64,000 bases of DNA, from positions 12,095 through 76,094 of the forward strand of contig CAZTVZ010000002.1 in assembly GCA_964617045.1 (NCBI GenBank), written 5' to 3'. The notes under the pieces were generated by a model that was not told the DNA's origin, did no database searches, and was given only the letters and a program-made list of their open reading frames with translations. This DNA is from an uncultured Gammaproteobacteria bacterium (GTDB taxonomy: Bacteria; Patescibacteriota; Microgenomatia; UBA8517). A program made the translations under genes and the position numbers. Shown here one piece after another: positions 1-57,095 of this stretch; within the stretch, counting starts at the first letter, position 1, and every line of letters starts with the position of its first letter.

Positions 1-1065
1 GAAAAGGAATTAAATCTGAGGCTGAATAAAAACGTCGGTGAATGGGATTGGGATTTACTTGCCAAATTCGACGAAAGCTTTTTATCTACAGTGGGTTTTT
101 CAAGTGAGGAGCTGGATGAAGTTTTTGATATAGACATAAACCCTGAGATATTTGATCTCAAAAAAGAACTTCAGAAATTGAGTATTACTAAAATCGAAGC
201 TCAAAAAGGAGATATCTATCAGCTTGGGCCTCACAAAATAATGGTCGGTGACTCAACCATCGAAAGCGACATACTAAAACTTATGGACGGTGAAAAAGCT
301 GACATGTGTTTCACTGATGAGCCATATTTAATTTCATACTTAACCGGCAAAACAAAACATGGAAAAGCAACAACTGGGTTCGGTGCAAAGAGAGATAGAA
401 GATATCTGGAAACGGAATCATTACCGGATAATTTCATGGATTTGTGGATGGATAATGTGGCTAAGGTGCAAAAGGAAGATTTTAGCATTATTTCTTTCGA
501 GAATTGGAAAAACCTCCCAAAGATGTGGGAGGCAATATCCAAGTACTGGAAGATCAGAAATTTAATAATTTGGCACCTACCCAATAGAATGCAGGGATTT
601 GCAGCAAAGTATAAATTTTTTAACAAATATGATATAGCTCTCTTGGGAACTAATTCATCAGATAAGTCTGATCTCAACTTAGAGCCTGAAGAGGAACTTT
701 TGCAAAATGAGTATCAAACGGCTTTGTATGCAACAAGTGGAAAACCCACCTGGGAAAAATACGAAAAAGGCAAAAAGTATTGTCCTACTGATTTTGTTGA
801 ATATAAAGCTGCAGATGAAAAAAGTTCTGGGCAAGGGATAATCTTCGGAACCAAGCCCGTAGAGATACTTTTGCCTTATCTCAAAGTCCTTACAAAAAGA
901 AACGATTTAGTAATTGAGCCTTTCTGCGGAAGTGGTAGCACCATGGTCAGTTGCGAAAAACTCAAAAGACGTTGCTATTCTATGGAAAAAAGCCCTGTTT
1001 ACGCTATGGTTGCAATTCACAGATGGGAGAAATTGACTGGACAGAAAGCTGTAAAAATAAAATGA
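1..1065 (+). CDS. phage-type DNA N6/N4 methyltransferase, 5'-partial (frame open to nt 1; upstream part likely ParB-like N domain)
   Basis: No stop codon in frame from nt 1. Beta-class motif order: TDEPY (DPPY-like motif IV) upstream of C-terminal EPFCGSGST (AdoMet motif I). Linker EWDWDLL...GFSSEEL is typical of ParB-MTase fusions. Stop TGA overlaps next gene ATG (ATGA). Confidence 0.65.
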   Translation, partial: EKELNLRLNKNVGEWDWDLLAKFDESFLSTVGFSSEELDEVFDIDINPEIFDLKKELQKLSITKIEAQKGDIYQLGPHKIMVGDSTIESDILKLMDGEKADMCFTDEPYLISYLTGKTKHGKATTGFGAKRDRRYLETESLPDNFMDLWMDNVAKVQKEDFSIISFENWKNLPKMWEAISKYWKIRNLIIWHLPNRMQGFAAKYKFFNKYDIALLGTNSSDKSDLNLEPEEELLQNEYQTALYATSGKPTWEKYEKGKKYCPTDFVEYKAADEKSSGQGIIFGTKPVEILLPYLKVLTKRNDLVIEPFCGSGSTMVSCEKLKRRCYSMEKSPVYAMVAIHRWEKLTGQKAVKIK

Positions 1066-1493
1066 CAAACTCAATTATAAAAAGACAATCAGCCCTGAAA
1101 AAAGATTTATTGGAAAAACTAAAGGAAACGCCCGTAGTTGAAGTTGCTTGCAGAAAAATCGGGATAGCTAGAGCCACATATTACAGATGGAGAATGAATG
1201 ATGAGAAGTTTGCAAAAGAAGCGGAGTTGGCCCTAGAAGCCGGGTCAGCATTAGTAAACGACATGGCGGAGAGCCAACTTCTAACGGCCATCAAGGATCA
1301 AAATATGACGGCTATCATTTATTGGTTAAATCATCACCATCCTGCATACGCCACTAAAATTGAGGTAACGGCGAATTTAAAAAATCAAAACGAAACATTA
1401 ACTCCTGAACAGGAGGCGTTGGTGACAAAAGCCTTACAGTTGGCTTCACTAATTCCGGCAGTAGAAAAGGAAGAAAAGGAGGGACAAAAATGA
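1062..1493 (+). CDS. phage terminase small subunit (HTH-containing)
   Basis: HTH segment VACRKIGIARATYYRWRMNDEKF. Position immediately upstream of and overlapping TerL. ORF-track start 951 lies inside the methylase; ATG at 1062 preferred. Confidence 0.5.
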   Translation: MTNSIIKRQSALKKDLLEKLKETPVVEVACRKIGIARATYYRWRMNDEKFAKEAELALEAGSALVNDMAESQLLTAIKDQNMTAIIYWLNHHHPAYATKIEVTANLKNQNETLTPEQEALVTKALQLASLIPAVEKEEKEGQK

Positions 1494-3004
1494 CTTATTT
1501 TCCACAGCTCGGCAAAGAAGAATTGGACAAGATCAGGAAAGACAGAAAAATAAGACGTGCTCTGGCAAGGAAGAGTCATTATTGGTTCTTCTCACTTTAC
1601 CTTCCTCACTACATTACGTGCGAATTTGCGCCGTTTCACCACGAGATATTCAAACTAACCGAAGAAGATGTCGAGTTTGCCGTTCTTGTCGCATTCCGCG
1701 GATCGGCAAAATCAACTTTAGTCACCCTCTCGTATGTGATTTGGGCAATCACTGGAATTCAGCAAAAGAAGTTTGTGTTAATCGTCAGTCAAACTCAAGC
1801 ACAGGCAAAACTGCACTTGGAAAATATAAAACGGGAACTTGAGAACAATGACCTACTAAAAGCTGATATAGGTCCATTTGAATCACCGAAAGATGAGTGG
1901 GGGTCAAATTCGATTGTAATTCCAAAGTTTGGAGCAAGAATTGCAGCAGTTTCTACCGAGCAAAGCATCCGTGGAGTCAGACATGGTCAATACAGACCAG
2001 ACCTCATTATTTGCGACGACATTGAGGATATTAACAGCGTTAAAACCAAAGAGGGGCGGGACAGAACCAACACCTGGTTTAATGCTGAAATTGTTCCGGT
2101 AGGTGACAAAGGTACAAAAACATTGGTAATCGGAAATCTTCTCCATGAAGACAGTTTGATAATGAGATTCAAAAAATCTATCTATGAGGGAAGATTATCG
2201 GGAGAATTTTTTGAATATCCGCTTCTTGATGACAGCAAAAATATTCTGTGGCCAGCCAAATACCCAACAATGGAAGATGTTGAAAAACTAAAGAAAACAT
2301 TTTTGCAGGAATCAGCTTTCTATCGGGAATATTTACTTAAAATAATTTCAGATGAGGACAGAATTGTTAAACGTGAGTGGATTAAATATTATGATGATCT
2401 CCCTTCTCCGGACGCAGATGATTTTGAATTTGCAGGTGTAGGAATCGATCTTGCCATCTCTGAAAGAGAATCGGCAGATTATACAGCCATGGTGTCCGCG
2501 TATATGTTCAGTCGTGATGAAAATCTGCGTGTATATATTCTTCCTAATCCCATAAACAAAAGAATGGATTTTCCGACAACAGTTAATATTGCAATTTCAC
2601 TTTCAAAAACGGTTGTGCATGGAGAACAGACAAAATTATTTATTGAGGAGGTTGGCTACCAAAAGGCTTTTATTGATTACCTGAGTAGCAAAAACATTCC
2701 CGTTGAGGGAGTTCAAGTCCATGGGCAGGATAAAAGAACACGTCTTGCCCTCGTAACTCACATAATTCAGCAGGGGAAAGTTTGGTTTCCAAGGCACGGT
2801 GCCGAAGAATTGATTAACCAACTGACTGGATTTGGAATCGAAAGACATGATGATTTAGCTGATGCATTTTCATTGTTACTTCTTAAAATACTTGAGGAGG
2901 CCAGTAAACCAGGGTTCCAATTTTGTATTGTCGATTGTTCACGACCGTATATAGACAATTTGTTCCGCGAGTTTCATGGAGATGATCCAGATGATTGGGA
3001 CTAG
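1490..3004 (+). CDS. phage terminase large subunit (ATPase + nuclease)
   Basis: Walker A-like AFRGSAKST, Walker B ICDDIED, C-terminal nuclease-like region GVGIDLAISERESADYTAMV. 504 aa. ATGA overlap with TerS. Confidence 0.8.
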   Translation: MTYFPQLGKEELDKIRKDRKIRRALARKSHYWFFSLYLPHYITCEFAPFHHEIFKLTEEDVEFAVLVAFRGSAKSTLVTLSYVIWAITGIQQKKFVLIVSQTQAQAKLHLENIKRELENNDLLKADIGPFESPKDEWGSNSIVIPKFGARIAAVSTEQSIRGVRHGQYRPDLIICDDIEDINSVKTKEGRDRTNTWFNAEIVPVGDKGTKTLVIGNLLHEDSLIMRFKKSIYEGRLSGEFFEYPLLDDSKNILWPAKYPTMEDVEKLKKTFLQESAFYREYLLKIISDEDRIVKREWIKYYDDLPSPDADDFEFAGVGIDLAISERESADYTAMVSAYMFSRDENLRVYILPNPINKRMDFPTTVNIAISLSKTVVHGEQTKLFIEEVGYQKAFIDYLSSKNIPVEGVQVHGQDKRTRLALVTHIIQQGKVWFPRHGAEELINQLTGFGIERHDDLADAFSLLLLKILEEASKPGFQFCIVDCSRPYIDNLFREFHGDDPDDWD

Positions 3005-3009
3005 TTACT

Positions 3010-3225
3010 TCAAAAGAGGTCGGAGATATCAGTCTTCAGCACTTTAGAAATTTTTGAGAGAAGTTTGAGGGATGGGGATTTCCTGCCCTGTTCGATATGC
3101 CCCATATGAGTTCTACTAATGTCTAGCTTGCTAGCCAGCCCCTCTTGAGACAGGTCAAGAGATTTTCTAAGCCTTTGGATTTTCTTCCCGAGTCTTTCTT
3201 TAGTTTGTTTAGTACTTCTGATCAT
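3010..3225 (-). CDS. XRE-family HTH transcriptional regulator (Cro/CI-like)
   Basis: LRKSLDLSQEGLASKLDISRTHMGHIEQGRKSPSLKLLSKISKVL matches HTH_3 pattern. 71 aa. Confidence 0.8.
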   Translation of the reverse strand: MIRSTKQTKERLGKKIQRLRKSLDLSQEGLASKLDISRTHMGHIEQGRKSPSLKLLSKISKVLKTDISDLF

Positions 3226-3260
3226 AAGCTATTATTGATAGCTATTAGGTCTCAATCTAC
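3226..3260. promoter_or_regulatory. operator-like palindromes between divergent XRE gene and downstream gene
   Basis: AGCTATTA repeated twice; ATAGCTAT is a perfect palindrome. Located directly upstream of the XRE start in the divergent intergenic region. Confidence 0.3.
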
Positions 3261-3356
3261 TAGCCATAAGCGAGCATATAGCCTCAACTTATGCTTGACT
3301 TTGAGGCAATTTACATGCATCATTCAGGTAATAGGAAAGAAAGGGGGTGAAATTTA

Positions 3357-3905
3357 ATGAAGAAACAATGTAAAGCTTGTAAATCAGAAATTGACGCAAA
3401 AGCCACTAAATGTCCGAAGTGTGGGGCTGACCAGAGAAATTGGTTTAGAAAACACCCTATTTTGACCGTTATTTTGGCACTTATTCTAATAGGAATGATT
3501 GGAGGTGCTGCCGGAGGCGATAAAAGTAGTTCCTCACAGTCAGAAAATAAACAACAGACAAAGGAGACTACTCAACCATCGCAAGAGGTTATTGTTGTCG
3601 CAGCACAAACCTTAGTTGGAGAATATGATAAAAATAAGCTTTCGGCACAAGATAAATATACAGGTAAACTAGTTCAAACAACCGGATATATAGTCAATAT
3701 CAGCAACGATATTACCGGAAGTTATTATCTATCTTTGAAACCAAACAACGATCAATATTACTTTGGTACCACAATTGCTTGCTATTTTGACAATAAGGAC
3801 GATCTAACATCCCTTGAGAAAGATCAAAAAGTAACAGTAAAAGGGAAAATGCAAGACATGACCTTGGGAATAGTAAATATTAAGGATTGTGAATTGGTTA
3901 AATAA
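3357..3905 (+). CDS. zinc-ribbon membrane protein with extracytoplasmic domain (phage accessory, function unknown)
   Basis: N-terminal CKACKSE...CPKCG zinc ribbon, one TM helix (ILTVILALILIGMIGGAAGG), Ser/Gln-rich linker, C-terminal beta-rich domain. Divergent from XRE. Confidence 0.5.
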   Translation: MKKQCKACKSEIDAKATKCPKCGADQRNWFRKHPILTVILALILIGMIGGAAGGDKSSSSQSENKQQTKETTQPSQEVIVVAAQTLVGEYDKNKLSAQDKYTGKLVQTTGYIVNISNDITGSYYLSLKPNNDQYYFGTTIACYFDNKDDLTSLEKDQKVTVKGKMQDMTLGIVNIKDCELVK

Positions 3906-4023
3906 AACGCTTTAGCCTTGGTAAAACAGTGACCGACCAGGGCTAGAGTTGTTTTAGGTGGTTTTTCTAAATCTTCAGATTGCGTCTGGACTTCACCCAC
4001 ACCTGCGGTACTCTCCCTTTAGG

Positions 4024-5337
4024 ATGCAAATAAGTCAGAACCAGGAACAAGAAATAATACCAATTGAGTATTGCCTTTATGCGAGAAAATCTTCCGAAAG
4101 TGACGAAAGGCAGGCAATGTCGATCGATTCACAGATAAAGGAAATGACTGATCTGGCAAAGAAAGAAAACCTAATAATTAGTGAGGTCAGACAAGAAAGT
4201 CATTCGGCCAAAGAGTCGGGACAAAGACCTGTGTTTGTACAACTTTTAAATGATCTGAGAAATGGAATTTTTGACGGAATTTTGACATGGGCTCCGGATA
4301 GGCTTTCCAGAAATGCCGGAGACTTGGGGATGTTGGTTGATTTAATGGATCAAGGAAAACTTCTAAAAATTAGAACTTTTTCCCAAACGTTTTCCAACAC
4401 ACCAAATGAGAAGTTCCTCCTCATGATTCTTTGTTCTCAAGCAAAGCTTGAAAATGATCAAAAGGGAGTGAATGTTAAACGGGGAATTCGGCATAAATGT
4501 GAGATGGGCTGGAGACCGGGAATGGCTCCAATCGGATATTACAACAGGGCATTTAATGGAGTTAAAGATATTGTTGTTGATCCGGATAGAGGCCATTTAA
4601 TAACTGAAATGTTTGAAAAAGCGATTAACGGAGAACATGGTAGATCGATTAAAAAGTGGGCAGATAAGGCGGGACTTAATAATCGGTCAGGAAAACCAAT
4701 TTATCTATCACAAATATACAGAATGCTTAAAGATACTTTCTATTATGGAGAATTTGAATATCCTGTTAACAGCGGAATTTGGTACAAAGGCTCCTACCCA
4801 CACTTGGTTACTAAAGAAATGTTTTTAAAGGTTCAAAAACTCAGAATGAGCATCCCGCCAAAAGCCAAATGGCGCAGTAAAAATATCTTATTCAGAGGAC
4901 TATTTAAATGTGCCAGTTGCCAAGCAGGAGTAACCTGTGAAGAGTCTTTCAGAGAAAGATTACACGGAGAGCCCAGGAGACACGTCTACTATCACTGTGG
5001 AAGAATCAGGGATCCAAATTGCAAAGAACCATTCGTGTCAGAAGAAAAATTAATTAGCTCATTAAATAAATACATCAGCTTTATGGCAAATAATCATCCT
5101 CAAACTGTTAGGTTGTCTCAAAAGATTAAAATTGGAATGGAAGCATATAACAATATTCGAGAAGAAGCCCTGATCCAACAGAATATCAATCCCAAAGGCA
5201 AGGCCCTGTCTTTTAACGAGTATGCCCAACACATTTTGAGGAACGGAACAAACGAGGAGAAAAAGGAAATGGCCATGGCTTTTGATAAACAACTCTATCT
5301 TCACAACAGAGAAGTCTGCGGGGCGCCGATCAAATAA
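4024..5337 (+). CDS. large serine recombinase (integrase)
   Basis: N-terminal resolvase motifs YARKSSESDERQAMSIDSQ (catalytic Ser) and DRLSRN. Large C-terminal recombinase domain with Cys-rich zinc ribbon (CASCQAG...HCGR). ORF-track start 3958; ATG at 4024 preferred. Confidence 0.85.
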   Translation: MQISQNQEQEIIPIEYCLYARKSSESDERQAMSIDSQIKEMTDLAKKENLIISEVRQESHSAKESGQRPVFVQLLNDLRNGIFDGILTWAPDRLSRNAGDLGMLVDLMDQGKLLKIRTFSQTFSNTPNEKFLLMILCSQAKLENDQKGVNVKRGIRHKCEMGWRPGMAPIGYYNRAFNGVKDIVVDPDRGHLITEMFEKAINGEHGRSIKKWADKAGLNNRSGKPIYLSQIYRMLKDTFYYGEFEYPVNSGIWYKGSYPHLVTKEMFLKVQKLRMSIPPKAKWRSKNILFRGLFKCASCQAGVTCEESFRERLHGEPRRHVYYHCGRIRDPNCKEPFVSEEKLISSLNKYISFMANNHPQTVRLSQKIKIGMEAYNNIREEALIQQNINPKGKALSFNEYAQHILRNGTNEEKKEMAMAFDKQLYLHNREVCGAPIK

Positions 5338-6093: not shown

Positions 6094-6129
6094 GAACAAA
6101 AAGATTCCACCCAATACTTGGGTGGAATC
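6094..6129 (-). terminator. rho-independent terminator downstream of hsp20
   Basis: Perfect 10-bp stem GATTCCACCC/GGGTGGAATC with 7-nt loop, followed on the minus strand by TTTTTGTTC. Confidence 0.6.
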
Positions 6130-6153
6130 TTAATTGAGTGTCTAAATTGACAC

Positions 6154-6582
6154 TTACTCACCAAGTGTTTTAACTTGGATTTTTTTCGGTTGCGCTTTTG
6201 GAGACTTCGCAAAGGCGATTGTCATTACTCCATGTTTATACGTAGCCTCTGGATCTTTAGTAGTATCTACATCCCCAGGAATAGCTACTCGATAGGAAAA
6301 TGATTGACTTGCCTTTCGGTAGTATTTCTTTTTCTTATCCTCTTCCTCTTCTTTTTTCTCTCCTCGAACCCAAACATATCCGTCCTGGAATGTCACATCC
6401 ACATTTTTAGGATCAATACCGGGAACGGCTGCTTCCACATAGACGTTATTTTCGTCTTCATAGATCGAAAGACCGCTTTGGGTTGAAGGGGAAGTTAACC
6501 ACTCCTCGTCTTCATCCCAAAAGTCTGGAAGAGAAAGGCTTGGAAAAGATAAAAGCCTTCTTGGAATTAGACTATTTGTCAT
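6154..6582 (-). CDS. Hsp20/alpha-crystallin family small heat shock protein
   Basis: Alpha-crystallin domain (VYVEAAVPGIDPKNVDVTFQDGYVWVRGEK...GVMTIAFAK). GGAGG 8 nt upstream of ATG at 6582. ORF track uses GTG at 6591. Confidence 0.85.
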   Translation of the reverse strand: MTNSLIPRRLLSFPSLSLPDFWDEDEEWLTSPSTQSGLSIYEDENNVYVEAAVPGIDPKNVDVTFQDGYVWVRGEKKEEEEDKKKKYYRKASQSFSYRVAIPGDVDTTKDPEATYKHGVMTIAFAKSPKAQPKKIQVKTLGE

Positions 6583-6606
6583 TTTTCTCACCTCCTTTCA
6601 TGTATA

Positions 6607-6633
6607 TTAGCAGTCTAATAAATGGAGTGCCAA
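6607..6633. promoter_or_regulatory. CIRCE-like inverted repeat (candidate HrcA-type operator) in hsp20 promoter
   Basis: On the hsp20 strand: TTGGCACTC-N9-GACTGCTAA versus CIRCE consensus TTAGCACTC-N9-GAGTGCTAA (1 mismatch per half). Flanked by -35 TTGACA; -10-like TAGACT lies within the right half. Confidence 0.6.
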
Positions 6634-6774
6634 TTTGTCAAGAGGGTTTTTAATTTGAGGTAGAAATAGTCCTGAATAACAAGGGTACGGTCCGAGACTT
6701 CTTAAAATAAGATGACACTTAGCAAACAGAATCGGGCTTTTTTAGAGCTTAGGGTCGCTTGGTGTCCAGTCTTG

Positions 6775-6845
6775 CTGCGGGTCAGGGATTCGAACCCCAA
6801 TAGGCAGATCCAGAATCTGCAGTCCTACCGTTAGACGAACCCGCA
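6775..6845 (-). tRNA. tRNA-Gln (anticodon CUG)
   Basis: Cloverleaf folded by hand: acceptor TGCGGGT/ACCCGCA with U1:A72 and G73 (bacterial Gln identity), D-arm GTCT-AACGGTA-GGAC, anticodon stem GCAGA/TCTGC, loop TTCTGGA, T-arm TGGGG-TTCGAAT-CCCTG. No encoded CCA. Confidence 0.75.
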
Positions 6846-6890
6846 TTATATCTTCAGTGTGATTTTATCAAATTGCGAAAGAAAATGGTT

Positions 6891-6927
6891 GCGGGGGATT
6901 GTTTTTTTTGGAAAAACTTTCCCCCGC
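6891..6927 (-). terminator. long GC-clamped hairpin between small ORF and tRNA-Gln (terminator-like)
   Basis: GCGGGGGA...TCCCCCGC outer stem with internal T8/A5 pairing. Confidence 0.35.
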
Positions 6928-6967
6928 TTTGGCTGGTACATTTGGCTGTCAACCCGTTTTACAGCTT

Positions 6968-7207
6968 TTAGCTGTTAAGTATTTTTAACGCTTTGTCAGT
7001 AAAACTGACTCGGTTATTCTTATCAATTTGAATAATTTCATATCGTATTAATGGCTTTGCATCACAAGCGGTAGGTGAGGCAGTGCCTTTAAAATTGGGA
7101 TTCTTGTTCATCATATTGACCAAGTTTCTGGCCATCTCCATGGAAATGCCGTTTATGTGTAAACTTGTGAGCTCTTCCTCGAGAGCTTTCCAATTATATA
7201 TAGTCAT
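6968..7207 (-). CDS. hypothetical small protein (79 aa)
   Basis: ORF only; no recognisable motif. Confidence 0.3.
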   Translation of the reverse strand: MTIYNWKALEEELTSLHINGISMEMARNLVNMMNKNPNFKGTASPTACDAKPLIRYEIIQIDKNNRVSFTDKALKILNS

Positions 7208-7374
7208 GTTTGTTTCTCTCCTTAGGACTAATGAGACAACGCAGGTGTTGTCTTTTATGTTGAACAGCCTTTATGTGCCAATGTGCCACCTATAAAAAGG
7301 TTATAGGTTCTTGTAGTATACAATTAGCCTCAAAAATTGTCAAAACTAGCCTGAGAAAGTATACTTTTAGGGGT

Positions 7375-8121
7375 ATGAATACGCTTGTTGCCGGTTTTTT
7401 AGGAGTAGTTCAGGGATTAACCGAATTCCTGCCTGTTTCCTCTTCGGGACACCTGGTTCTTTTTCAGAAACTGATTCCTAGTTTTTCTCAACCGGGGCTT
7501 ACTTTTGATGTTATTCTTCACTTCGGAACGCTTTTTGCCGTTCTTTTCTATTTCAGAAAAGATCTTTTAAAAATTAAATTCAGATACCTTTGGTTTTTAG
7601 GTATCGGTACGATACCTGCACTTCTTGTTGGTGTATTTGCCAGAGATTGGATAGAAGGAATGTTTGATAGTGGGAGTACCCTTTGGTTAGAATTTTTGGT
7701 TTCGGCACTGGTCAACTATTTGATATGGAAAATTATTCCCAAAGAGGGAGAGGTTAATACCAGAAACTCTTTTGTTACCGGTATTGCACAGGCAATTGCA
7801 ATCATACCCGCAATCAGCAGGTCTGGTGCAACAATATTTGCAGGACTTGTGCAGGGGGTTAAACCACAGGAGGCAGTAAAATATTCTTTTCTTCTTTCCG
7901 TACCAGCGATACTTGGGGCAAATATTCTTGAACTATTTTCTCTATCCTCTCAGGGTGTGGGTACGATAAACATTTTTGACTATTCCATAGGTTTTCTTGC
8001 GGCTTTCATCTCGGGTTTTTTCGCCATAAAACTTGTCTCAAAACTACTTCTCAATAGAAAATTCCTTTTCTTTGCCATTTACTGTGTAGTCGTTGCGGGA
8101 GTTGCTCTACTTGTTGATTAA
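7375..8121 (+). CDS. uppP: undecaprenyl-diphosphate phosphatase (UppP/BacA)
   Basis: Hallmark N-terminus MNTLVAGFLGVVQGLTEFLPVSSSGHL and SRSGATI motif. Multi-TM. AGGGG RBS before ATG at 7375. Confidence 0.9.
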   Translation: MNTLVAGFLGVVQGLTEFLPVSSSGHLVLFQKLIPSFSQPGLTFDVILHFGTLFAVLFYFRKDLLKIKFRYLWFLGIGTIPALLVGVFARDWIEGMFDSGSTLWLEFLVSALVNYLIWKIIPKEGEVNTRNSFVTGIAQAIAIIPAISRSGATIFAGLVQGVKPQEAVKYSFLLSVPAILGANILELFSLSSQGVGTINIFDYSIGFLAAFISGFFAIKLVSKLLLNRKFLFFAIYCVVVAGVALLVD

Positions 8122-8478
8122 AGGCAGAATCTTCGGAAGAAAAATAAACAGTCCAACAACGACAGAAAGAAGAGCTGACACAAATACAGCCGCGGCGGCC
8201 ACGTCTTTTGCTACTTTTGCTCTAGGTCTTCTTTTTGGTGATACTAAATCGGTTATTGCTTCCAGTGACGTGTTGATAAATTCGAGTATCAATACGAATG
8301 CAATCGTAAATGCCAATATTATCCACTCGGTGCTATTGATATTAAAGACAAATCCAAAAATTACGGCGAGAATCGCAAAACCCAAGTGAATTCTGATATT
8401 GGGTTCGTTTTTTATTGCTTCCACTATACCGTCCATAGCGTATCCGAAACTTGCAGTGGTGGAATGACGCTTGCTCAT
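8107..8478 (-). CDS. dgkA: diacylglycerol kinase family protein (DgkA-like; undecaprenol kinase in Gram-positive-type envelopes)
   Basis: Small 3-TM protein. N-terminus MSKRHSTTASFGYAMDGIVEAIKNEPNIRIH and EFINTSLE match the DgkA pattern. ORF-track start 8496. Confidence 0.75.
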   Translation of the reverse strand: MSKRHSTTASFGYAMDGIVEAIKNEPNIRIHLGFAILAVIFGFVFNINSTEWIILAFTIAFVLILEFINTSLEAITDLVSPKRRPRAKVAKDVAAAAVFVSALLSVVVGLFIFLPKILPLINK

Positions 8479-8516
8479 ATACTTAAAGTATAGCAAAGGT
8501 TATGTTAGGATGAATT

Positions 8517-9200
8517 ATGGCAATTATTAATAGAAGAAAAATACCAAGATTTCTAATTGTCGCACCTGTCTTATTTGTACTTTCTCTTCTTTTGTTGTCT
8601 TTGACAACAAACAGATCCTTGACGGTCAATACTGGTTGTGGCAAATGTGAAGTAAAAGAAATAATAGATCCTGATGCAAAATTGGGTCAATATAATGGCC
8701 AAGCGGTAAATATACCCAAATTATCTTTTAAGTCTACGAGCAACTATGTATTAGGTGCCAATAGCGAGAAAAAATGGATTGAAGTTGATTTGTCGGATCA
8801 AAAATTGAGAGCTTGGGACGGAGACAGTTTGTATTTAGAATCTCTGGTTTCTACGGGACTTCCTTGGTGGCCTACACCCCAAGGAGAATTCCGTATCTGG
8901 GCAAAAGTGCGTGCTACCAAAATGGAGGGTGGATCTGGTAAATATTATTACAATCTTCCCAATGTTCCGTATGTTATGTTTATGGAAAACGAAAAGGTTC
9001 CCGGTTGGAGGGGATACGGCCTTCATGGGACATATTGGCATAATGATTTCGGAAAAGTGCACTCCCACGGTTGTGTGAATTTACCGACCGATATTGCCGA
9101 AAAACTTTACTATTGGACGACACCCGAATTAAATGCCGGAAAAGGCTGGATATTTTCTGACGACAATAATCCCGGAACAAGAATAGTAATTCATGAATAA
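8517..9200 (+). CDS. L,D-transpeptidase (YkuD domain)
   Basis: Catalytic region YGLHGTYWHNDFGKVHSHGCVNL. N-terminal TM anchor. Confidence 0.85.
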   Translation: MAIINRRKIPRFLIVAPVLFVLSLLLLSLTTNRSLTVNTGCGKCEVKEIIDPDAKLGQYNGQAVNIPKLSFKSTSNYVLGANSEKKWIEVDLSDQKLRAWDGDSLYLESLVSTGLPWWPTPQGEFRIWAKVRATKMEGGSGKYYYNLPNVPYVMFMENEKVPGWRGYGLHGTYWHNDFGKVHSHGCVNLPTDIAEKLYYWTTPELNAGKGWIFSDDNNPGTRIVIHE

Positions 9201-9669
9201 TTTGATTTTCTCTTCGGAGAACCTGTTTATCACATTTCTGGCAAGTATTCTTATCTGGCTGATGTTTGCAGCCCTTCTTTTCGTGTGGGTTAAAAATAAA
9301 AGGGTAAGAAAAGATACCGCGATTAGGGCATTTTTGTCAGCACTGATAGCGTGGAGTGTTGCCGAAATAATAAAAATGATTATCAGTGTTCCGAGGCCGT
9401 ACGAAATAACCGGATACAGTCCTCTTACCGCGACAGTTCCGGGAACTAATTCATTTCCTTCAACACATTCGGCAGTTGCTGCCGCACTTGCAACAAGTTT
9501 GTTTCTGAGGGAGAAGTCGATAGGGATATATTTTGTAATGGGTGCGGTGGGGGTTGCTGTAGGGAGAATCCTTTCCAACGTTCATTATATTTTTGATGTT
9601 ATTGTCGGAATATGGATTGGAATTGTGGTTGGATTTGTGTCTTCAAAGGTAGGGATAAAAAGAAAATGA
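9193..9669 (+). CDS. PAP2-family membrane phosphatase (possible undecaprenyl-PP / lipid phosphatase)
   Basis: PAP2 motifs SFPSTHS and SNVHYIFDVIVG. 4-5 TM helices. Confidence 0.7.
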   Translation: MNNLIFSSENLFITFLASILIWLMFAALLFVWVKNKRVRKDTAIRAFLSALIAWSVAEIIKMIISVPRPYEITGYSPLTATVPGTNSFPSTHSAVAAALATSLFLREKSIGIYFVMGAVGVAVGRILSNVHYIFDVIVGIWIGIVVGFVSSKVGIKRK

Positions 9670-9672
9670 CAC

Positions 9673-9706
9673 TTGACTATTAGCAGTTAAAATAATAGAC
9701 TGCTAA
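9673..9706 (+). promoter_or_regulatory. lon promoter with embedded CIRCE-like inverted repeat
   Basis: -35 TTGACT, 17-nt spacer, -10-like TAGACT. IR TTAGCAGTT-N9-GACTGCTAA (9680-9706) ends 7 nt before the lon ATG. Same architecture as upstream of hsp20. Confidence 0.6.
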
Positions 9707-13892: not shown

Positions 13893-16800
13893 TTATCTTA
13901 ATCCGAAAAACTTTAGAATTTTTTCAAATATAGTTTCTTTTTTGGGAGGCTCCTGAATAGCGGGCATCTTATATTCAGGGGTTACGGAAGGAGTGATTAA
14001 AGGAGACTGTTCCGTATCAGGTTTGTTTGTGGTTATTTTCTGAGCAACTTGATTAACGGTATTTCTGATATTGTTGGTGAGAATTGAATACCTGCTTCCG
14101 GATTTGATGGATACTTCATTGGACCACGCACCGCTTGCACATCTATTGTAAGGAATTAACTTAAAGAAATATTTTATGTTGGGATTAAGTTTAGACACAA
14201 TAACGGATTTATCTCCGTATCTTGCAACGGATATTCCTCCGTGGATATATTTGCCCGATTGAACACCATAGACCAAATGGTAATCGGTTACCGGTTGCCA
14301 TGAATCGTTGAAATATATTTTAATTTTGTCTCCACCCAAAGATTCGACTTTCCAGATATACGGTGCACTTCCCGGTGCCGATTCACCGCAACTTCCTCCA
14401 CTTGAAGATGAACCTCCACTACTGCTGCCACCGGAATTGTTATTGTTGTCTCCCGAATCGGTGTTAAGAGAGATCATCATGTCCGGGTCATACACTTCGG
14501 CTTCTTCGGTTGTTGCATATGAATGAAATACAAGTTTAATGTATTCCAAGATTGGTGTTGAACCTTTGGTCATGGTAATCCTGAACCTTAATTGATCGCC
14601 GGCGGTCGGAAAGAATACCGTTTCACCGTACACAATCTCTTCCCAAGTTGTTCCTCCATCGTTAGAGATGGCATAGCTGGTCAAATCGTCCAAGGAATAT
14701 GCGCTTCCCGTACTTACGGATCCGATAATGCTTTCAAGTCTGAAGTAGTTGGCTGCCGCCATTCCGTAGGGAAGAGGTGGGATAATGATTACAGTGTTTT
14801 CTTCTTCGTACGATCTTGTTATTTCGACTTTGGATACACCAACTGCCTGAGAACCTATCCATATGGTGTCGTCGCTTTCTATATAGTATCCGAATCCGTT
14901 ACCTGTTCTGTATAGTGCGTCCGGAAGAGAGAAGTCATACGATACATCGTCAATGGTATCGGTATAAGTGCTGTTGTAATTAAACACTCTTATATGGCCT
15001 TCTCTGGTTGCAAAGATTATTTCGCTTCCGATTGGATCGTCACCTTCATGCCAATACATCTTTTGGATATGTTCATTACCGATATTGGCAATGGAGACCA
15101 TTAGGGCAAAAACATCATCATCCGTTGCTACCGTATCTTTAGTATCAAGTGTCCAGATACCAGCATCTCCACCGAACCAATAAATATTATTTTCGTCTTC
15201 GACTATGGAAAATGCTGCAGCTGTGTCGATAGAACCGGAAGTTGTTTTGTAACAAGTATCGTCCGATTTGTCGCCTGATGTTACACCCAAATCACAGATA
15301 TATGTTCCGTTAACATAACTATTTAATACAAGCGTGTTCCTGTCCGCATCGAAATATGTTCCAACGATATCGTTGTATCCGTCTTCCGCAACATCACCTC
15401 TGATGCCATCGCTTTGCCCCCAATAAGTAATGGTGTCGTCCTCAATGTCGAAGGTGTTTTTGGTGTCGATTCTTGCAATATAGTAACTACCCAAATCTTC
15501 GGCCTGCTCACCGTTGTTCAAGTTAACAAACAAGGCGGTTGTTGCCTGGGTGTTGTCGACGGCGAATACGGAAAAACCTCGATTGTATAGTTCAGCCGTT
15601 TCACTTGGGTAAGTTGTCCCGTCGATTACATTGAAATTGGTTTTACTGTTGTATGCAATATATGTATCGTCTCCAATATCGGACATTGTTCCCTTGGTGT
15701 CATATAAAATTGTTGTTCCGGATTGATAGTAGGAGATAAACAACATTCTGTTTGATCCCGCCATAAACTCCGTTACTTGGGTTACTCTTGAGTCGTGAAT
15801 CGAAGGATATAAAGTGTATGCATTGGTGTTTTTGTCCAAATACATTATGTCTCCTCTGTCCGTACCGATCCAGAGAAATCCAGAATCTATTGCGGGAGAA
15901 ACCGACACTTCTGCCTTACCAAAATCGTATCCGAAGAGGAAGTAATCCTTTTCGAATAGTGCTTGATAGTCAAAATCCAAAGTTGGTTTCAAATGCAGTT
16001 TTCCGTTTCCCCATACTCCGCTTGAAGCAAGTTGGTCTTGAAGAACGTGAGATCTGAAATCAATTTCTGCGGACACGGCAGTGACCGAAAGTCCGTCCGG
16101 TTGGTCAATTACTTCGAATGATTCTTCCACATTGGAGTGGGGGTTTCCTATAATCGGATCTGTCGTTAATCCGGCAGCATCGGTTGCCTGTAGTTCAATC
16201 GTGTGTGTTCCCGTATTTAAACCCGACAGACTGATTTCAAATTCTTCCATTGGAGAATCGAATGTTGAATTGTCTACAGTAACCCACTCCCCACCATCTA
16301 TACGATATTTCAAATTGGCGATGTTTGATGCCGTATCTCCCTCGTTTAATAATGTGTAATCTCTGACAAATCCTTTAATTGATACGTCTCTGTAAATTGT
16401 CGGATTGGGTGCAATTGTGTAAACAAAGATGTCCGGTGCCGTTTGGTCTGTTGCTTCAACAACGAACCTGTAGCTTGGGACTATGTCGGGCCTACTGTAG
16501 CCATATTCACCAAAATCAAGATTGTAGACATGGGTGTTTCCTCTGTCGTCCGTTGCTTTTACAAACATTACGTAAGTTCCGTCCGAAAGTTCGGGAAGAG
16601 TAACGGTTGCGGTTTCGCTGGTTTCATCCCAGGCAAGATCGTCAGGTGTAATAGATATCCATTCATTTACATATGCGGGAACGTTATATTCCGCAGATAC
16701 GATTGTTGATGCGTCCTGAAATCCCAATACTATGGAAGGAGTATTGTCTGTAACTCTGGATGCATTTGCGGGACCGGTAATTGTAATTGCGGGAGGAGCA

Positions 16801-19187
16801 TAGTCTCCGGGGGTGGAGTAAAACCTTATATCGTCAATTATTCCTTCCATTCCCTCTCCAATTATCAAGTCTCCTGAAGAAGAGGGGAGAGTATAGAAAG
16901 AACTAAACACTTCATTTACCGCCGGGTTGTCGTTTATCTTTGTCGAAACCATTTTGTTAACAGCGTCGTAAGATATTTCGACGTAATTCCAATCGTTATA
17001 AGTCAGATCGGCATTACCCGAATCATACTGAGTGTCCACCGAATAACCCATGCTGTTTTGGGCGGTAAAAGTGGAATAAATATGTCCCGTCTCCCTCATT
17101 GTTACCTGCCAAGAATTGAGACCGGTTTCGTTATATCTTTTACTGATTATTGTTCTTGACGTGTCGTTGTTGGCTGAAGATGGTCTGATCCAAAAAGAAA
17201 GTCTAAAACTTTCGTCCGCACCGGAAAAATCAAGAAGAGAACTTGCGTCGGTCAAAGTGAAAGAAGAAGAGTATTGATTAAAGATCAGAGATCTTCCCGA
17301 TACCCCGACCTCGTACGAAATTAATCCGTTGGAAATATATTCGTCTCCGTTCGGCCAAGTTTTTACCGGTAAACTTCCGGATGTATCTCCGGGGCTGTTT
17401 GGTTGATCCATAGGAAGCCATGCAACTATGTCTCCATCGGCATTTCTTAATATACTGAACCTTCCGTATCTATCGCTTCTTGTGGAAATTGGAGTACCGG
17501 AATTGTCCGTGGCACGAAACTCATACATGTAGGCTGTTTCGTCTGACAAGCCGGTTGCGGTACAAATAAAATCTTCACTTGTCGAGTTAAAACTCCCGTC
17601 GGAAGCGGTACAGGAAGACCATTCGTTGGGAGATGAAGCATTAAACAAACGAAAATCAACGGAGGCAATATCGCTGGTAAAAGATGCATTTCCGGTTATT
17701 TGATATGAATCTGCTTGGGTAACGGCACCTTTGGTTGCAAATGTGATAACAGGACCGGCGCTTATTGTATCCGGAAGCGTGTAGTTGCTGTATATTTTTA
17801 CCTCGTCCAGGTATCCGGTGTATCTATCGTTCCAGTCGTTAATCTGAAATGCTCCGGTCGATGCAGGTAAGGATTCTCCGTAAAGGGTAGACTCAACTGT
17901 TGGATTATTGTTTACCTTAATTGCGATTGTGCTTTCGGCTGCTTGTTTGTATGCAAATTGAACATGGTTCCATTCCCCAAAAGTGAGAACGGAATTGGTA
18001 TTATCTAGTCCCACAAATCTTTCGTTTATTTCGAGTGCCTCGTTAACTACATTAACAATTGCGTATGCATGGCGGCTTCCGTCCATTGCAATTTGCCAAG
18101 TAAATCCGTCTCCTGCGGTGTTTTGCTTTCCCATGATAAAGTACTTACCAAGCGAACCTCCGATTATTGGTTTTATCCAAAAATCTACAGTGAATTCTTT
18201 TGAGGCACCGTTATACGACAGGTTTCCGTCACCATCCGTATAAATTATTTTTGATGCTCCCTCACGAACGAAGTTGATTGCATTTCCGCTATATCCCCAA
18301 GATACTTGTCTGGGTGGATAATTTGCTTCCGCGTTTGTAGAAATTGTCGAGTAAGTGACTGCACCCTCGGTATCTATGGGTGAAGATATGTCTTCAAACT
18401 TGAACCAGCTTTGAAGAGTCGGCCCGACAACGGGAGTATTTGTTACTTCGTAAATAATGTAACTGCTGGGGATGGTTACATTGCTGTCTCCATCCGTGCC
18501 TCTGATTTCGAAAGAATATGCGGTTTCGTCATCAAGTCCGGTAATTGTACAAGTAAAGGGTTCGTCTTCCCCTTCCATGTCGTCAACGATTTGATCAAAA
18601 ACTCCGTCGTCGGCAGTACAATTGTGCCATCCTCCTTCGGTTTCGTCGTTGGTATCTCTGTATTGGATACTGTTTGTAATTTGATTATCGTAAGCGACTC
18701 CGGTTATTAATACTTGTCCCCCCGAAGAAGTTCCAGAATAAGAGTTCAGCGTAATTGTCGGTCCGAAATTAACATCTATTTCGTATGTTGTATAAAAACC
18801 CGGTTGAGTAGTATTTCCATTGTCATCCCATGCCATAAATTCATAAGTAACTTGTGGCAAATCAGTGGAGGTAAATAATTCAAATACTTCTTCGGTTTCG
18901 TCGTAATCGCCGTCATAAGCCGAAAGACCTGTTGGTGGAAGAAATTCTATATCCCCTTGATTGCGAAATTTAACGCCGGACACAATATCTTCAATGTCTG
19001 TTGCCGTACCGTAAAGAGAAATCATTCCGTCCGAAGTTTCATGAGAATTTATCACTATTGTAGGAGCTGCTTCATCGGCAATAATTGATTTAACAAAATT
19101 GAAGTTTTTTATTAGGTAGAGGGAGATAACAAGAAGGACTAAAATCCCGAGCTTATAGAGCAGTTTTAAATTTTTCAGCAAATTCAT
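13893..19187 (-). CDS. giant secreted/surface protein (1764 aa) with LamG/concanavalin-like and FN3-like domains
   Basis: N-terminal signal anchor. Two LamG-like modules (e.g. FTVDFWIKP...WNHVQFAY...LDEVKIYS). Gly/Ser linker GGSSSGGSSSSGG. C-terminal FN3-like module (YFFKLIPYNRCASGAWS). Confidence 0.85.
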   Translation of the reverse strand: MNLLKNLKLLYKLGILVLLVISLYLIKNFNFVKSIIADEAAPTIVINSHETSDGMISLYGTATDIEDIVSGVKFRNQGDIEFLPPTGLSAYDGDYDETEEVFELFTSTDLPQVTYEFMAWDDNGNTTQPGFYTTYEIDVNFGPTITLNSYSGTSSGGQVLITGVAYDNQITNSIQYRDTNDETEGGWHNCTADDGVFDQIVDDMEGEDEPFTCTITGLDDETAYSFEIRGTDGDSNVTIPSSYIIYEVTNTPVVGPTLQSWFKFEDISSPIDTEGAVTYSTISTNAEANYPPRQVSWGYSGNAINFVREGASKIIYTDGDGNLSYNGASKEFTVDFWIKPIIGGSLGKYFIMGKQNTAGDGFTWQIAMDGSRHAYAIVNVVNEALEINERFVGLDNTNSVLTFGEWNHVQFAYKQAAESTIAIKVNNNPTVESTLYGESLPASTGAFQINDWNDRYTGYLDEVKIYSNYTLPDTISAGPVITFATKGAVTQADSYQITGNASFTSDIASVDFRLFNASSPNEWSSCTASDGSFNSTSEDFICTATGLSDETAYMYEFRATDNSGTPISTRSDRYGRFSILRNADGDIVAWLPMDQPNSPGDTSGSLPVKTWPNGDEYISNGLISYEVGVSGRSLIFNQYSSSFTLTDASSLLDFSGADESFRLSFWIRPSSANNDTSRTIISKRYNETGLNSWQVTMRETGHIYSTFTAQNSMGYSVDTQYDSGNADLTYNDWNYVEISYDAVNKMVSTKINDNPAVNEVFSSFYTLPSSSGDLIIGEGMEGIIDDIRFYSTPGDYAPPAITITGPANASRVTDNTPSIVLGFQDASTIVSAEYNVPAYVNEWISITPDDLAWDETSETATVTLPELSDGTYVMFVKATDDRGNTHVYNLDFGEYGYSRPDIVPSYRFVVEATDQTAPDIFVYTIAPNPTIYRDVSIKGFVRDYTLLNEGDTASNIANLKYRIDGGEWVTVDNSTFDSPMEEFEISLSGLNTGTHTIELQATDAAGLTTDPIIGNPHSNVEESFEVIDQPDGLSVTAVSAEIDFRSHVLQDQLASSGVWGNGKLHLKPTLDFDYQALFEKDYFLFGYDFGKAEVSVSPAIDSGFLWIGTDRGDIMYLDKNTNAYTLYPSIHDSRVTQVTEFMAGSNRMLFISYYQSGTTILYDTKGTMSDIGDDTYIAYNSKTNFNVIDGTTYPSETAELYNRGFSVFAVDNTQATTALFVNLNNGEQAEDLGSYYIARIDTKNTFDIEDDTITYWGQSDGIRGDVAEDGYNDIVGTYFDADRNTLVLNSYVNGTYICDLGVTSGDKSDDTCYKTTSGSIDTAAAFSIVEDENNIYWFGGDAGIWTLDTKDTVATDDDVFALMVSIANIGNEHIQKMYWHEGDDPIGSEIIFATREGHIRVFNYNSTYTDTIDDVSYDFSLPDALYRTGNGFGYYIESDDTIWIGSQAVGVSKVEITRSYEEENTVIIIPPLPYGMAAANYFRLESIIGSVSTGSAYSLDDLTSYAISNDGGTTWEEIVYGETVFFPTAGDQLRFRITMTKGSTPILEYIKLVFHSYATTEEAEVYDPDMMISLNTDSGDNNNNSGGSSSGGSSSSGGSCGESAPGSAPYIWKVESLGGDKIKIYFNDSWQPVTDYHLVYGVQSGKYIHGGISVARYGDKSVIVSKLNPNIKYFFKLIPYNRCASGAWSNEVSIKSGSRYSILTNNIRNTVNQVAQKITTNKPDTEQSPLITPSVTPEYKMPAIQEPPKKETIFEKILKFFGLR

Positions 19188-41980: not shown

Positions 41981-42675
41981 TGGGTTTTTGGGATTCCCGG
42001 ACTCTTGTGCCCTCTATTACTTCCTGGAATGTTGATTGGAGAAAATGGGTAAAGGATGCAGACGAACTTGGTATTAAATCATTGGCAATCTTTCTTACCG
42101 GGATAGACAAATCGGAAAGACCCGAGCTTTATAAACTTCTTGATGAGAGCAATGTAGAAAATATTCCTTTTGTTCACCTCAAAAGCGACATGGATTTGTG
42201 GGAGTTGGATTACTTTGTGGAAAAGTGGGGAACCAAGGCTTTCAATATTCACACTGAGAAAGAATATAGACAGGAAAACGATATATCCAAATACAAGAAT
42301 ATAATCTATGTCGAAAATGTTCATTTGAAACTTGACGAAGAAGAGGTGAAAAGATGGGGAGGCTTGTGTATAGATGTAAATCATATCGAAGAAGCAAAAT
42401 ACATCTATAAAGATATCCATGAACATAACCTTGAGGTAATGAAGAAATACAAAGTCGGTTGTAATCATTTATCACCCCTCAAGGCTGATATTGCTACCGA
42501 TCTGGAATTCAAAAATACTCACCTTGTCGAAAACCTGTCGGAATTTGATTATCTGGACAATTATGAATCGAGATTCTTCGGGCCAATAATGGCTTTGGAG
42601 GTACGCAACCCCTTGAAGGAACAATTACCCATGTTGAAATACGTAGTAGAATTACTTGATGGCAAAGAAAAGTAA
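41980..42675 (+). CDS. hypothetical protein (231 aa)
   Basis: ORF with ATGA-type overlaps to neighbours; no recognisable motif. Confidence 0.4.
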   Translation: MGFWDSRTLVPSITSWNVDWRKWVKDADELGIKSLAIFLTGIDKSERPELYKLLDESNVENIPFVHLKSDMDLWELDYFVEKWGTKAFNIHTEKEYRQENDISKYKNIIYVENVHLKLDEEEVKRWGGLCIDVNHIEEAKYIYKDIHEHNLEVMKKYKVGCNHLSPLKADIATDLEFKNTHLVENLSEFDYLDNYESRFFGPIMALEVRNPLKEQLPMLKYVVELLDGKEK

Positions 42676-43270
42676 AATCAACTGGACCAAAACACTTGGC
42701 CTTATCGGAGACATTCTCATATTAATCGGACTTGTTGCCATAGTCCTTACCTTCAGGGAAGCCGCACAAAAAGAAGTAAGCTATACGGTTCGAAAAACAT
42801 TCAATATTCCTTATAAGGAAAAAGATCTAACTCCGGGGAATAAAGACTTTTGGATTGTAATTCCCAAAATTGGTGCTTCATCAAGGGTAATTGCCGACGT
42901 TAGTCCTTCAAACGAGGAAGAATATTTGAGTGCCCTAAGAAGGGGAGTTGCTCACGCTAAAGGTTCGACTTATCCGGGAGATTTTGGTAATACATATATC
43001 TTTGCCCACTCAACGGATACTTTTTATAATGTAGGACAATACAATGCTGTTTTCTTTTTACTCGGCAAGTTGAATAAAGGAGACAATATAGAAATTTACT
43101 ATAAGGAGAAGAAATATGATTATATTGTTAATGAAGTTAAGGTTGTTGACGCTGCCGATGTTAAATACCTCGGCAAGCTTGGAGAATGGAATACTTTAAC
43201 CTTGCAAACATGTTATCCTCCGGGAACCACATTAAAACGTCTTGTAGTAGTTGCTGATCAAAAGATTTGA
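42656..43270 (+). CDS. sortase (transpeptidase)
   Basis: N-terminal TM. Catalytic His region YIFAHST and TLxTC motif LTLQTCYP. Confidence 0.8.
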   Translation: MMAKKSKINWTKTLGLIGDILILIGLVAIVLTFREAAQKEVSYTVRKTFNIPYKEKDLTPGNKDFWIVIPKIGASSRVIADVSPSNEEEYLSALRRGVAHAKGSTYPGDFGNTYIFAHSTDTFYNVGQYNAVFFLLGKLNKGDNIEIYYKEKKYDYIVNEVKVVDAADVKYLGKLGEWNTLTLQTCYPPGTTLKRLVVVADQKI

Positions 43271-43316
43271 CAACACCTATAACCGGGTGTATAACATCAA
43301 AGTACCTAAAGAAAAG

Positions 43317-56384: not shown

Positions 56385-57095
56385 ATGGCTAAGTACCTAA
56401 TAGATAAACTGTCGGTTTTCTTTCCCGCCTACAACGAAGAAATTAATATAAGAAGTACCGTTACAAAAGCCGTAAACGTTTTGAATAAAACCGCTAAAAC
56501 TTGGGAAATTATTATTGTTAACGACGGATCGAAAGACAAGACGGGTGAAATATCAGACTCTATGGCCAAAAAAGACAAGAGAATAAGGGTAATTCACCAC
56601 AACCCCAACAGGGGGTACGGAGCAGCCTTAAAAAGCGGTTTATATGGTTCCAGATATCCTTGGATTGTGTTTACAGACTCTGACGGACAGTTTGATTTTG
56701 CTCAACTTCCAAACTTTATTAACACACAAAAAGAAACAGGAGCAGATCTTGTAATCGGATACTATCTTGAAAGAAAAGTACCCTTCAACAGGAAACTAAA
56801 TACTTTTTTGTGGCAAACGGTTGTAAATATTCTTTTTGGACTACATGTAAAAGATATTGATTGCGGATTTAAATTAATCAGTAAAAAGGTGTTGGACAAG
56901 ATTCCAAAACTTGAATCCGAAAGAGGAGCTTTTATTTCCAGCGAGTTTTTAATAAAGGCCAAAAAGATGAAATTTAAGATTGTGGAAATTGGCGCAAAAC
57001 ATTTTCCGGCCAAAAAACCGGGTACGGGTGCCCATCTGAATGTAATAATCAAAAGCTTCATTGATCTTTTCAGATTATGGAAAAAATTAAGGTAA
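56385..57095 (+). CDS. GT2 polyprenyl-phosphate glycosyltransferase (Dpm1/ArnC-like)
   Basis: LSVFFPAYNEE, IIVNDGSKDKT, TDSDGQFD motifs. Confidence 0.85.
   Translation: MAKYLIDKLSVFFPAYNEEINIRSTVTKAVNVLNKTAKTWEIIIVNDGSKDKTGEISDSMAKKDKRIRVIHHNPNRGYGAALKSGLYGSRYPWIVFTDSDGQFDFAQLPNFINTQKETGADLVIGYYLERKVPFNRKLNTFLWQTVVNILFGLHVKDIDCGFKLISKKVLDKIPKLESERGAFISSEFLIKAKKMKFKIVEIGAKHFPAKKPGTGAHLNVIIKSFIDLFRLWKKLR

Follow-up and report, generated by a model that had tools for sequence, protein, structure and literature searches.

In the classical heat-shock system, the repressor HrcA acts at a DNA element known as the controlling inverted repeat of chaperone expression (CIRCE). CIRCE consists of two inverted 9-bp arms that flank a 9-bp spacer, its core is TTAGCA...TGCTAA, and it lies at the sigma-70/sigma-A promoters of protein-quality-control genes. 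Here we describe two palindromes of this kind in a 64-kb stretch of DNA (the window) from an uncultured Woesebacteria-like bacterium of the candidate phyla radiation (CPR). One lies upstream of hsp20, which encodes a small heat-shock protein (HSP), and the other lies upstream of lon, which encodes an ATP-dependent protease. We predict, with a probability of roughly 0.85, that both palindromes are CIRCE operators that are bound by HrcA, and that each is fused to a housekeeping (sigma-70-type) promoter.

The two sites share the arms, the spacer, and the core of the classical element, as well as the location at a promoter of a protein-quality-control gene, so repression by an HrcA dimer would be expected here too. 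But there are several differences. The targets here are hsp20 and lon; the window contains neither groE nor dnaK. At position 7 of the arm, G and C are swapped (CAGTC / GACTG). Also, the operator is fused with the promoter: the left arm is in the promoter's spacer and the right arm forms the -10 element. In Bacillus subtilis, CIRCE instead sits between the -10 element and the start codon. Finally, the HrcA proteins of CPR relatives have about 240 amino acids (aa), versus about 340 aa in the classical system.

Other repressors also have operators at the promoters of chaperones and proteases. These include the CtsR box and the HspR-associated inverted repeat (HAIR), and lon and clp are typical targets. 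To our knowledge, the heptad repeat of CtsR and HAIR are unrelated in sequence to the sites in the window and do not resemble them.

The HrcA regulon varies around a groESL core (PMC545781), and both of the targets in the window have counterparts elsewhere. In Mollicutes, lon carries CIRCE (PMC5138195), as was also reported for lon from Mycoplasma pneumoniae (PMC7737663). Like our bacterium, the Mollicutes have reduced genomes with CIRCE at lon (their HrcA regulon comprises the operon of dnaK as well as clpB and lon), and HrcA is among the very few regulators that they retained. Unlike our bacterium, they belong to a different phylum, and the predicted leader of lon in the window is short and has no Shine-Dalgarno (SD) sequence. 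Also, lon from M. pneumoniae is driven from the upstream trigger-factor promoter as well (PMC7737663), whereas lon in the window has a dedicated promoter, which occupies the 44-nt gap between it and the upstream PAP2 gene. As for small HSPs, the hsp16 gene of Lactobacillus acidophilus is preceded by CIRCE and is predicted to be controlled by HrcA (PMC3179173). That CIRCE is perfectly canonical, while the site at hsp20 in the window is a hybrid that overlaps the -10 element.

An earlier reading of the window, which was made without any comparisons (the sequence-only reading), had proposed a shared heat-shock regulon that includes lon and a small HSP, and had emphasized that these are not canonical targets. 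The shared regulon has gained comparative support, but the targets are not unprecedented, as the Mollicutes lon and L. acidophilus hsp16 illustrate. The predicted control of lon and hsp20 by CIRCE is an ordinary type of regulation, that of the classical HrcA-CIRCE system, and what is known about HrcA-CIRCE itself is not changed by our sites. The twists are modest: the fusion of promoter and operator, the short predicted leader of lon with no SD sequence, and the short HrcA proteins of the CPR. A literature search found no paper that links HrcA or CIRCE with the CPR or Patescibacteria in a regulatory sense.

Two palindromes at the hsp20 and lon promoters

Each site is a 27-bp palindrome with 9-bp arms and a 9-bp spacer (Table 1). 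The sequence-only reading had described two sites with a common architecture, and the sequence matches that description to the base. It had also placed both palindromes within promoters. A promoter scan agrees: it identified TTGACA-18-TAGACT for hsp20 (6641 to 6612 on the minus strand, score 10/12) and TTGACT-17-TAGACT for lon (9673 to 9701 on the plus strand, score 9/12), and this arrangement is kept in orthologues. In both promoters, the left half-site is within the promoter spacer, directly 3' of the -35 element, and four of the -10 hexamer's six bases (TAGACT) come from the right half-site (GACTGCTAA). So each site has -35-like and -10-like hexamers that are 17-18 nt apart and upstream of a gene, as expected for a sigma-70-type promoter.

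These are the only CIRCE-like palindromes in the 64 kb, given a pattern search with up to three mismatches to either the canonical or the variant consensus. Compared to the variant (TTAGCAGTC-N9-GACTGCTAA), the hsp20 site has two mismatches and the lon site has one; 0.00 such sites are expected in shuffled sequences. Compared to the canonical element (TTAGCACTC-N9-GAGTGCTAA), they have two and three mismatches, respectively, and shuffled sequences are expected to give 0.05 sites. The hsp20 site is a hybrid: one of its arms is of the canonical type (CACTC) and the other is of the variant type (GACTG). The sequence TAGACTGCTAA occurs exactly twice in the window, and both copies are at these sites.

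The Lon protein is complete, with the substrate-binding domain (from residue 11), the AAA domain, the lid, and the Lon_C domain (Pfam). The start codon of lon is unambiguous, because there is an in-frame TAG at 9696-9698 (inside the -10 element) and no start codon between that and the ATG at 9714. In the alignment of N termini, the motif R-V-P-I-V-A-V-R-G comes after nine residues, which is the same as in the orthologues.

Table 1. Coordinates of the hsp20 and lon genes and of their predicted control elements in the window.
Feature	Position	Strand	Evidence or remarks
Predicted CIRCE operator 1	6607-6633		+ strand TTAGCAGTC-TAATAAATG-GAGTGCCAA; hsp20 strand TTGGCACTC-CATTTATTA-GACTGCTAA
Predicted hsp20 promoter, -35 TTGACA	6636-6641	-	promoter scan; two bases (AA) before left arm
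Predicted hsp20 promoter, -10 TAGACT	6612-6617	-	promoter scan, 18-nt spacer; overlaps right arm
hsp20 Shine-Dalgarno GGAGG	6591-6595	-	read from sequence, 8 nt upstream of ATG at 6582
hsp20, small heat-shock protein, 142 aa	6154-6582	-	Pfam PF00011 3.6e-17
Intrinsic-terminator-like hairpin 3' of hsp20, 14-bp stem + T-run	6101-6131	-	
Predicted CIRCE operator 2	9680-9706		+ strand TTAGCAGTT-AAAATAATA-GACTGCTAA; then GATACAA, ATG at 9714
Predicted lon promoter, -35 TTGACT	9673-9678	+	promoter scan; 4 nt past stop codon of upstream PAP2 gene; one base (A) before left arm
Predicted lon promoter, -10 TAGACT	9696-9701	+	promoter scan, 17-nt spacer; overlaps right arm
lon, ATP-dependent protease La, 785 aa	9714-12071	+	Pfam; Lon_C 2.3e-89

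Conservation of the sites in relatives and across bacteria

We compared the lon site to 80 metagenomic loci whose Lon proteins are 65-79% identical to the one in the window. (The relatives with names are Candidatus Woesebacteria.) A CIRCE-like site lies directly upstream of lon in 79 of these loci, and the remaining locus begins inside the gene, so it has no upstream DNA. We aligned 67 distinct sequences, including the site from the window and two lon sites from GTDB genomes (from Roizmanbacteria, L036, and Shapirobacteria, L123). The shared pattern is TTGAC[A/T], 1 nt, the left arm [T/C]T[A/G]GCA, N10, and TAGACTGCTAA. Across these sites, the -35 element is near-invariant and TAGACTGCTAA is essentially invariant. 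In the left arm, positions 2 and 4-6 are invariant while positions 7-9 are free. The GCA and TGC cores are both invariant. The invariant core of the left arm falls in a promoter spacer that is otherwise not conserved.

The hsp20 gene has 899 homologues, and the best 120 of these are up to 93% identical to the window's Hsp20. We examined nine groups of orthologues (the gene from the window and eight further groups at 70-89% identity). CIRCE is upstream of hsp20 in all nine groups, despite differing gene neighborhoods, and in eight of the nine, TTGACA is 2-5 nt 5' of the left arm. The promoter and the palindrome come in two registers. In the first register, there is a 2-nt gap and the -10 element (TAGACT or TAGATT) is inside the right arm (the window; L205, L208, and L224). 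In the second register, the gap is 4-5 nt and the -10 element (TATAAG, TATATT, or TATTAT) is in the spacer of CIRCE. Whichever register is used, the two arms are retained, and this argues for an operator rather than a promoter element. The SD sequence is kept as GGAGG or GGGGG in all of the groups.

The eight further hsp20 loci (L205, L208, L209, L211, L215, L224, L226, and L228) are in unrelated neighborhoods, and each has its own CIRCE promoter. Together, the hsp20 gene and its operator seem to form a self-contained cassette that travels or persists as a unit.

We then searched for the variant element in GTDB genomes (one per species), using the pattern TTAGCAGT-N11-ACTGCTAA. At least 120 loci have this motif, and the counts are for a sample of them. 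To assign neighbors, the open reading frames (ORFs) that point away from each site were clustered, and representatives were annotated with Pfam. The pattern leaves two inner positions of the arms unspecified, but C and G occupy them in 98 of the 121 sites, versus 1/16 by chance. At 97 of the 120 loci, the site's immediate neighbor is a heat-shock-type gene. The neighbors among the 120 loci include groES (45), hrcA (23), an rpoH-like sigma factor (14), a ClpB- or ClpC-type ATPase (7), htpG (7), and lon (2); both groES and hrcA are present at one locus. The variant is found in Clostridia, Dehalococcoidia, Acidobacteriota, Xanthomonadales, and the CPR. Within the CPR, for example, it is at hrcA in Levybacteria, Uhrbacteria, Saccharibacteria, and Paceibacteria, and it is at lon in the Roizmanbacteria and Shapirobacteria genomes mentioned above. 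Because of the preference for C and G at the inner positions, and because the neighbors are heat-shock genes or hrcA itself, we conclude that TTAGCAGTC-N9-GACTGCTAA is one of the natural forms of the HrcA operator, and that it is widespread. Judging from these sites, either C or G is tolerated at position 7 of the arm.

At the 14 loci with a sigma factor, the distance between TTAGCAGT[C/G]-N9-GACTGCTAA and the start of a sigma-70-family gene that encodes about 294 aa is 1-35 nt, and mostly 1-11 nt (L006, L017, L025, L030, L034, L040-L042, L052, L061, L073, L075, L087, and L116). This gene is probably rpoH. Thirteen of the loci are from Xanthomonadales and the exception (L116) is from a metagenome-assembled genome (MAG) of Competibacteraceae. 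CIRCE at rpoH has been published for Geobacter (PMC545781).

Overall, the arms and the spacer match CIRCE, the sites are at the promoters of heat-shock genes, the variant is found at core genes of the regulon elsewhere, and the sites are conserved in orthologues. The sequence-only reading had noted the resemblance to the HrcA operator, and this is now backed by the motif statistics, by the variant's association with groES and hrcA, and by the conservation.

HrcA in the CPR and rival explanations

Is HrcA the protein that binds these sites? The same palindrome lies directly 5' of hrcA in five other CPR lineages, including another member of the Microgenomatia (Levybacteria), and this is why we infer that HrcA binds the sites in the window. 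In a MAG from Uhrbacteria (L064, 2846-6609), CIRCE controls an hrcA-grpE-hsp20-dnaK operon, so a small HSP is encoded within a CIRCE operon in this MAG. The operon's promoter has the same fused design as in the window: TTGACG, 2 nt, CIRCE with TAGACT from the right arm, 2 nt, and the ATG of hrcA. Levybacteria belong to the same class as Woesebacteria, and 5942 homologues were identified for a Levybacteria HrcA; the best 120 of these are all Levybacteria-like.

The HrcA proteins from the CPR are short, with 219-244 aa (L068:440-1165(-), L064:2875-3558, L113:3819-4535, L031:187-903(-), and L122:3625-4281(-)). They lack about 115 internal residues that are present in HrcA proteins of about 330-350 aa (alignment columns 134-248). 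We take the missing residues to be the inserted dimerising domain. The N-terminal winged helix of the CPR proteins aligns with residues 15-105 of HrcA from Thermotoga maritima (1STZ).

In the MAG from Levybacteria (L068, 1160-1345 on the minus strand), the first seven codons of hrcA (ATGCATGATCTTACACAGCGA) are present twice. One copy is 9 nt past the CIRCE promoter, and the other copy is at the real start of the ORF, about 146 nt downstream. The insert between the copies contains a GC-rich hairpin as well as an SD sequence. From its sequence, this arrangement looks like an insertion into an hrcA that was ancestrally leaderless.

Several observations weigh against HrcA control of the window's sites. 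Among the window's roughly 55 ORFs, Pfam identified no hrcA, groES/EL, or dnaK. A tblastn search (with six HrcA queries, and with HrcA and GroES from the CPR and the window's Hsp20) found none of these genes in the window or in the relatives' 80 lon loci. There was also no hrcA, groES/EL, or dnaK in about 13 kb of flanking sequence past the ends of the window (from Logan contigs of the same organism). Since the DNA that we inspected has no hrcA, the repressor is a predicted one for the window's genome and for its family. In the 67 lon sites, conservation is clearly weaker in the left arm (at positions 1, 3, and 7-9) than in the right arm. The right arm is more conserved because it doubles as the -10 element, so part of the conservation reflects the constraint on the promoter and not on an operator. 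Finally, functional CIRCE elements in Mollicutes reportedly have at most two mismatches to the canonical sequence (PMC5138195), and the lon site has three.

The lack of hrcA raises the issue of whether the palindrome is the operator of another repressor, which would have taken over the site after the lineage lost hrcA. The atypical HrcA proteins of the CPR, which are short and lack the internal residues, do suggest that the system is evolving in this group, and no hrcA is in the readable DNA of this organism or of its closest relatives. But the inspected DNA covers only about 80 kb out of a genome of roughly 1 Mb, so the missing gene means little. Furthermore, the core TTAGCA-N15-TGCTAA is identical to that of CIRCE, and the location of the palindrome directly before hrcA in five other CPR lineages implies autoregulation. 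We consider a different repressor to be unlikely. As for the uneven arms, they would also fit a strong and unusual promoter, with TAGACTGCTAA as an extended -10 or discriminator motif, no repressor, and an incidental likeness to CIRCE. The right arm plus TA hardly changes from site to site, in contrast to the left arm; the spacing of the -35 and -10 elements is strictly 17-18 nt; 42 of the 67 lon sites have TG at the extended -10 position, two bases 5' of TAGACT; and TAGACT resembles the -10 element at another gene too (at 56385). Such a promoter would not explain why the left-arm core T[A/G]GCA is invariant (positions 2 and 4-6) in a spacer where sigma-70 needs no specific sequence. Nor would it explain why the -10 element shifts into the CIRCE spacer in some hsp20 orthologues while both arms stay, or why the palindrome lies outside of the hexamers, 3' of the -10 element, at some hrcA and groES genes from the CPR. 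Also, there are 74 copies of TAGACTGCTAA in 1.44 Mb of related DNA, and 73 of these have a left arm at the distance expected for CIRCE. We therefore rejected a stand-alone promoter motif, which we consider very unlikely.

A third idea is that the inverted repeat functions as an RNA hairpin, either as a terminator or attenuator for the PAP2 gene or as a 5' stability element, and not as a DNA operator. The lon site does fold (-11 kcal/mol, z = -3.9), and it begins just 10 nt after the stop codon of PAP2. But there is no T-run after the stem, and the fold of the hsp20 site is weak (-6.3 kcal/mol, z = -1.7). The left inner stem varies without compensation: for instance, 35 of the 67 lon sites have A at left position 8, opposite an invariant A. 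And because the -10 element is inside the right arm, transcripts from these promoters should start 3' of the palindrome, so they would not contain the CIRCE hairpin. Given the absence of covariation and the geometry of the promoters, we rejected a hairpin or terminator, and we give this idea the least credence of all. An operator for HrcA remains our explanation for both sites.

Predicted regulation and significance

If HrcA does control these genes, then its dimer, bound to the palindrome, would cover the promoter spacer, the -10 element, and the transcription start site. As the operator spans both the spacer and the -10 element, bound HrcA should block the binding of RNA polymerase. Upon heat, as unfolded proteins accumulate, HrcA would lose its activity. 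(In model bacteria, this occurs because GroEL is titrated away.) The inactivation of HrcA would then derepress hsp20 and lon together. We predict that translation of hsp20 would use a leader of about 23 nt that carries a strong SD sequence, and that the leader used for lon would be about 5-6 nt long and lack an SD sequence.

The short leader predicted for lon follows from its -10 element, which ends 12 nt before the ATG. Among the lon orthologues, CIRCE ends 1-90 nt before the ATG; in 38 of 78 cases this gap is at most 10 nt, and in 14 of 78 it is at most 5 nt. So the description of lon as nearly leaderless, which was made before these comparisons, fits the position of the -10 element, the lack of an SD sequence, and the short gaps in orthologues. 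The short leader also appears to fit the style of this genome, which is SD-poor and often leaderless: an SD-like motif was found at only about 13 of 56 genes in the window. A literature search found nothing relevant on leaderless mRNAs in the CPR.

At several other genes in the window, including those for SerRS, SecA, and TrmD, a -10-like hexamer (TATAAT, TAAAAT, or TAGACT) ends 6 nt before the start codon. (These gene starts are at 22047, 26372, 53990(-), 13871(-), 25114(-), 48448, and 56385.) Leaderless mRNAs thus seem to be common in this Woesebacteria-like genome, as far as can be predicted from promoter-like hexamers.

More speculatively, Woesebacteria-like members of the CPR could run a minimal heat-shock circuit. 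The repressor would be a truncated HrcA of about 240 aa, without the inserted dimerising domain. It would act at a promoter-operator cassette (TTGACA, 1-2 nt, TTAGCA, N10, TAGACTGCTAA) in which the repressor and the sigma factor compete for the same bases. This cassette would stand before both lon and hsp20, and the mRNA of lon would be near-leaderless. We view this circuit as possible but doubtful. If it is correct, then the short HrcA would bind in a changed mode, and the contrast between the invariant right arm and the loose left arm would reflect this, beyond the constraint on the -10 element.

The rest of the window has some other features. Two promoter-like sites overlap at 7315-7365 and are divergent, with TTGACA-17-TATACT on the minus strand and TTGTCA-17-TATACT on the plus strand (promoter scan). 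They sit between an ORF of 79 aa (6968-7207, minus strand) and uppP/bacA (7273-8121). A mobile or phage-like block (91-5337) adjoins hsp20 and the gene for tRNA-Gln (6774-6845, minus strand). It encodes an N6/N4 DNA methylase (91-1065), a helix-turn-helix (HTH) protein (951-1493), a protein like the terminase large subunit (1490-3004), an OB-fold protein like tRNA_anti (3357-3905), and a large serine recombinase (3958-5337). There are also two very large ORFs, at 13893-19187 (minus strand, 1764 aa) and at 43251-47483 (plus strand, 1410 aa). The latter is preceded by a sortase gene (42656-43270) and may encode a surface protein. An Rfam scan of the window identified nothing beyond the two tRNAs.

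For the CPR, a group with almost no descriptions of regulation so far, the window's sites provide a concrete and well-conserved transcription-factor site together with its promoter architecture. The invariant TTGACA-17-TAGACT module, along with gene starts that are SD-poor and have the -10 element at the start codon, could be used to annotate promoters and start sites in MAGs from the CPR. And if our interpretation is correct, then lon and the small HSP would be front-line heat-shock genes in the reduced genomes of the CPR, as in Mollicutes.

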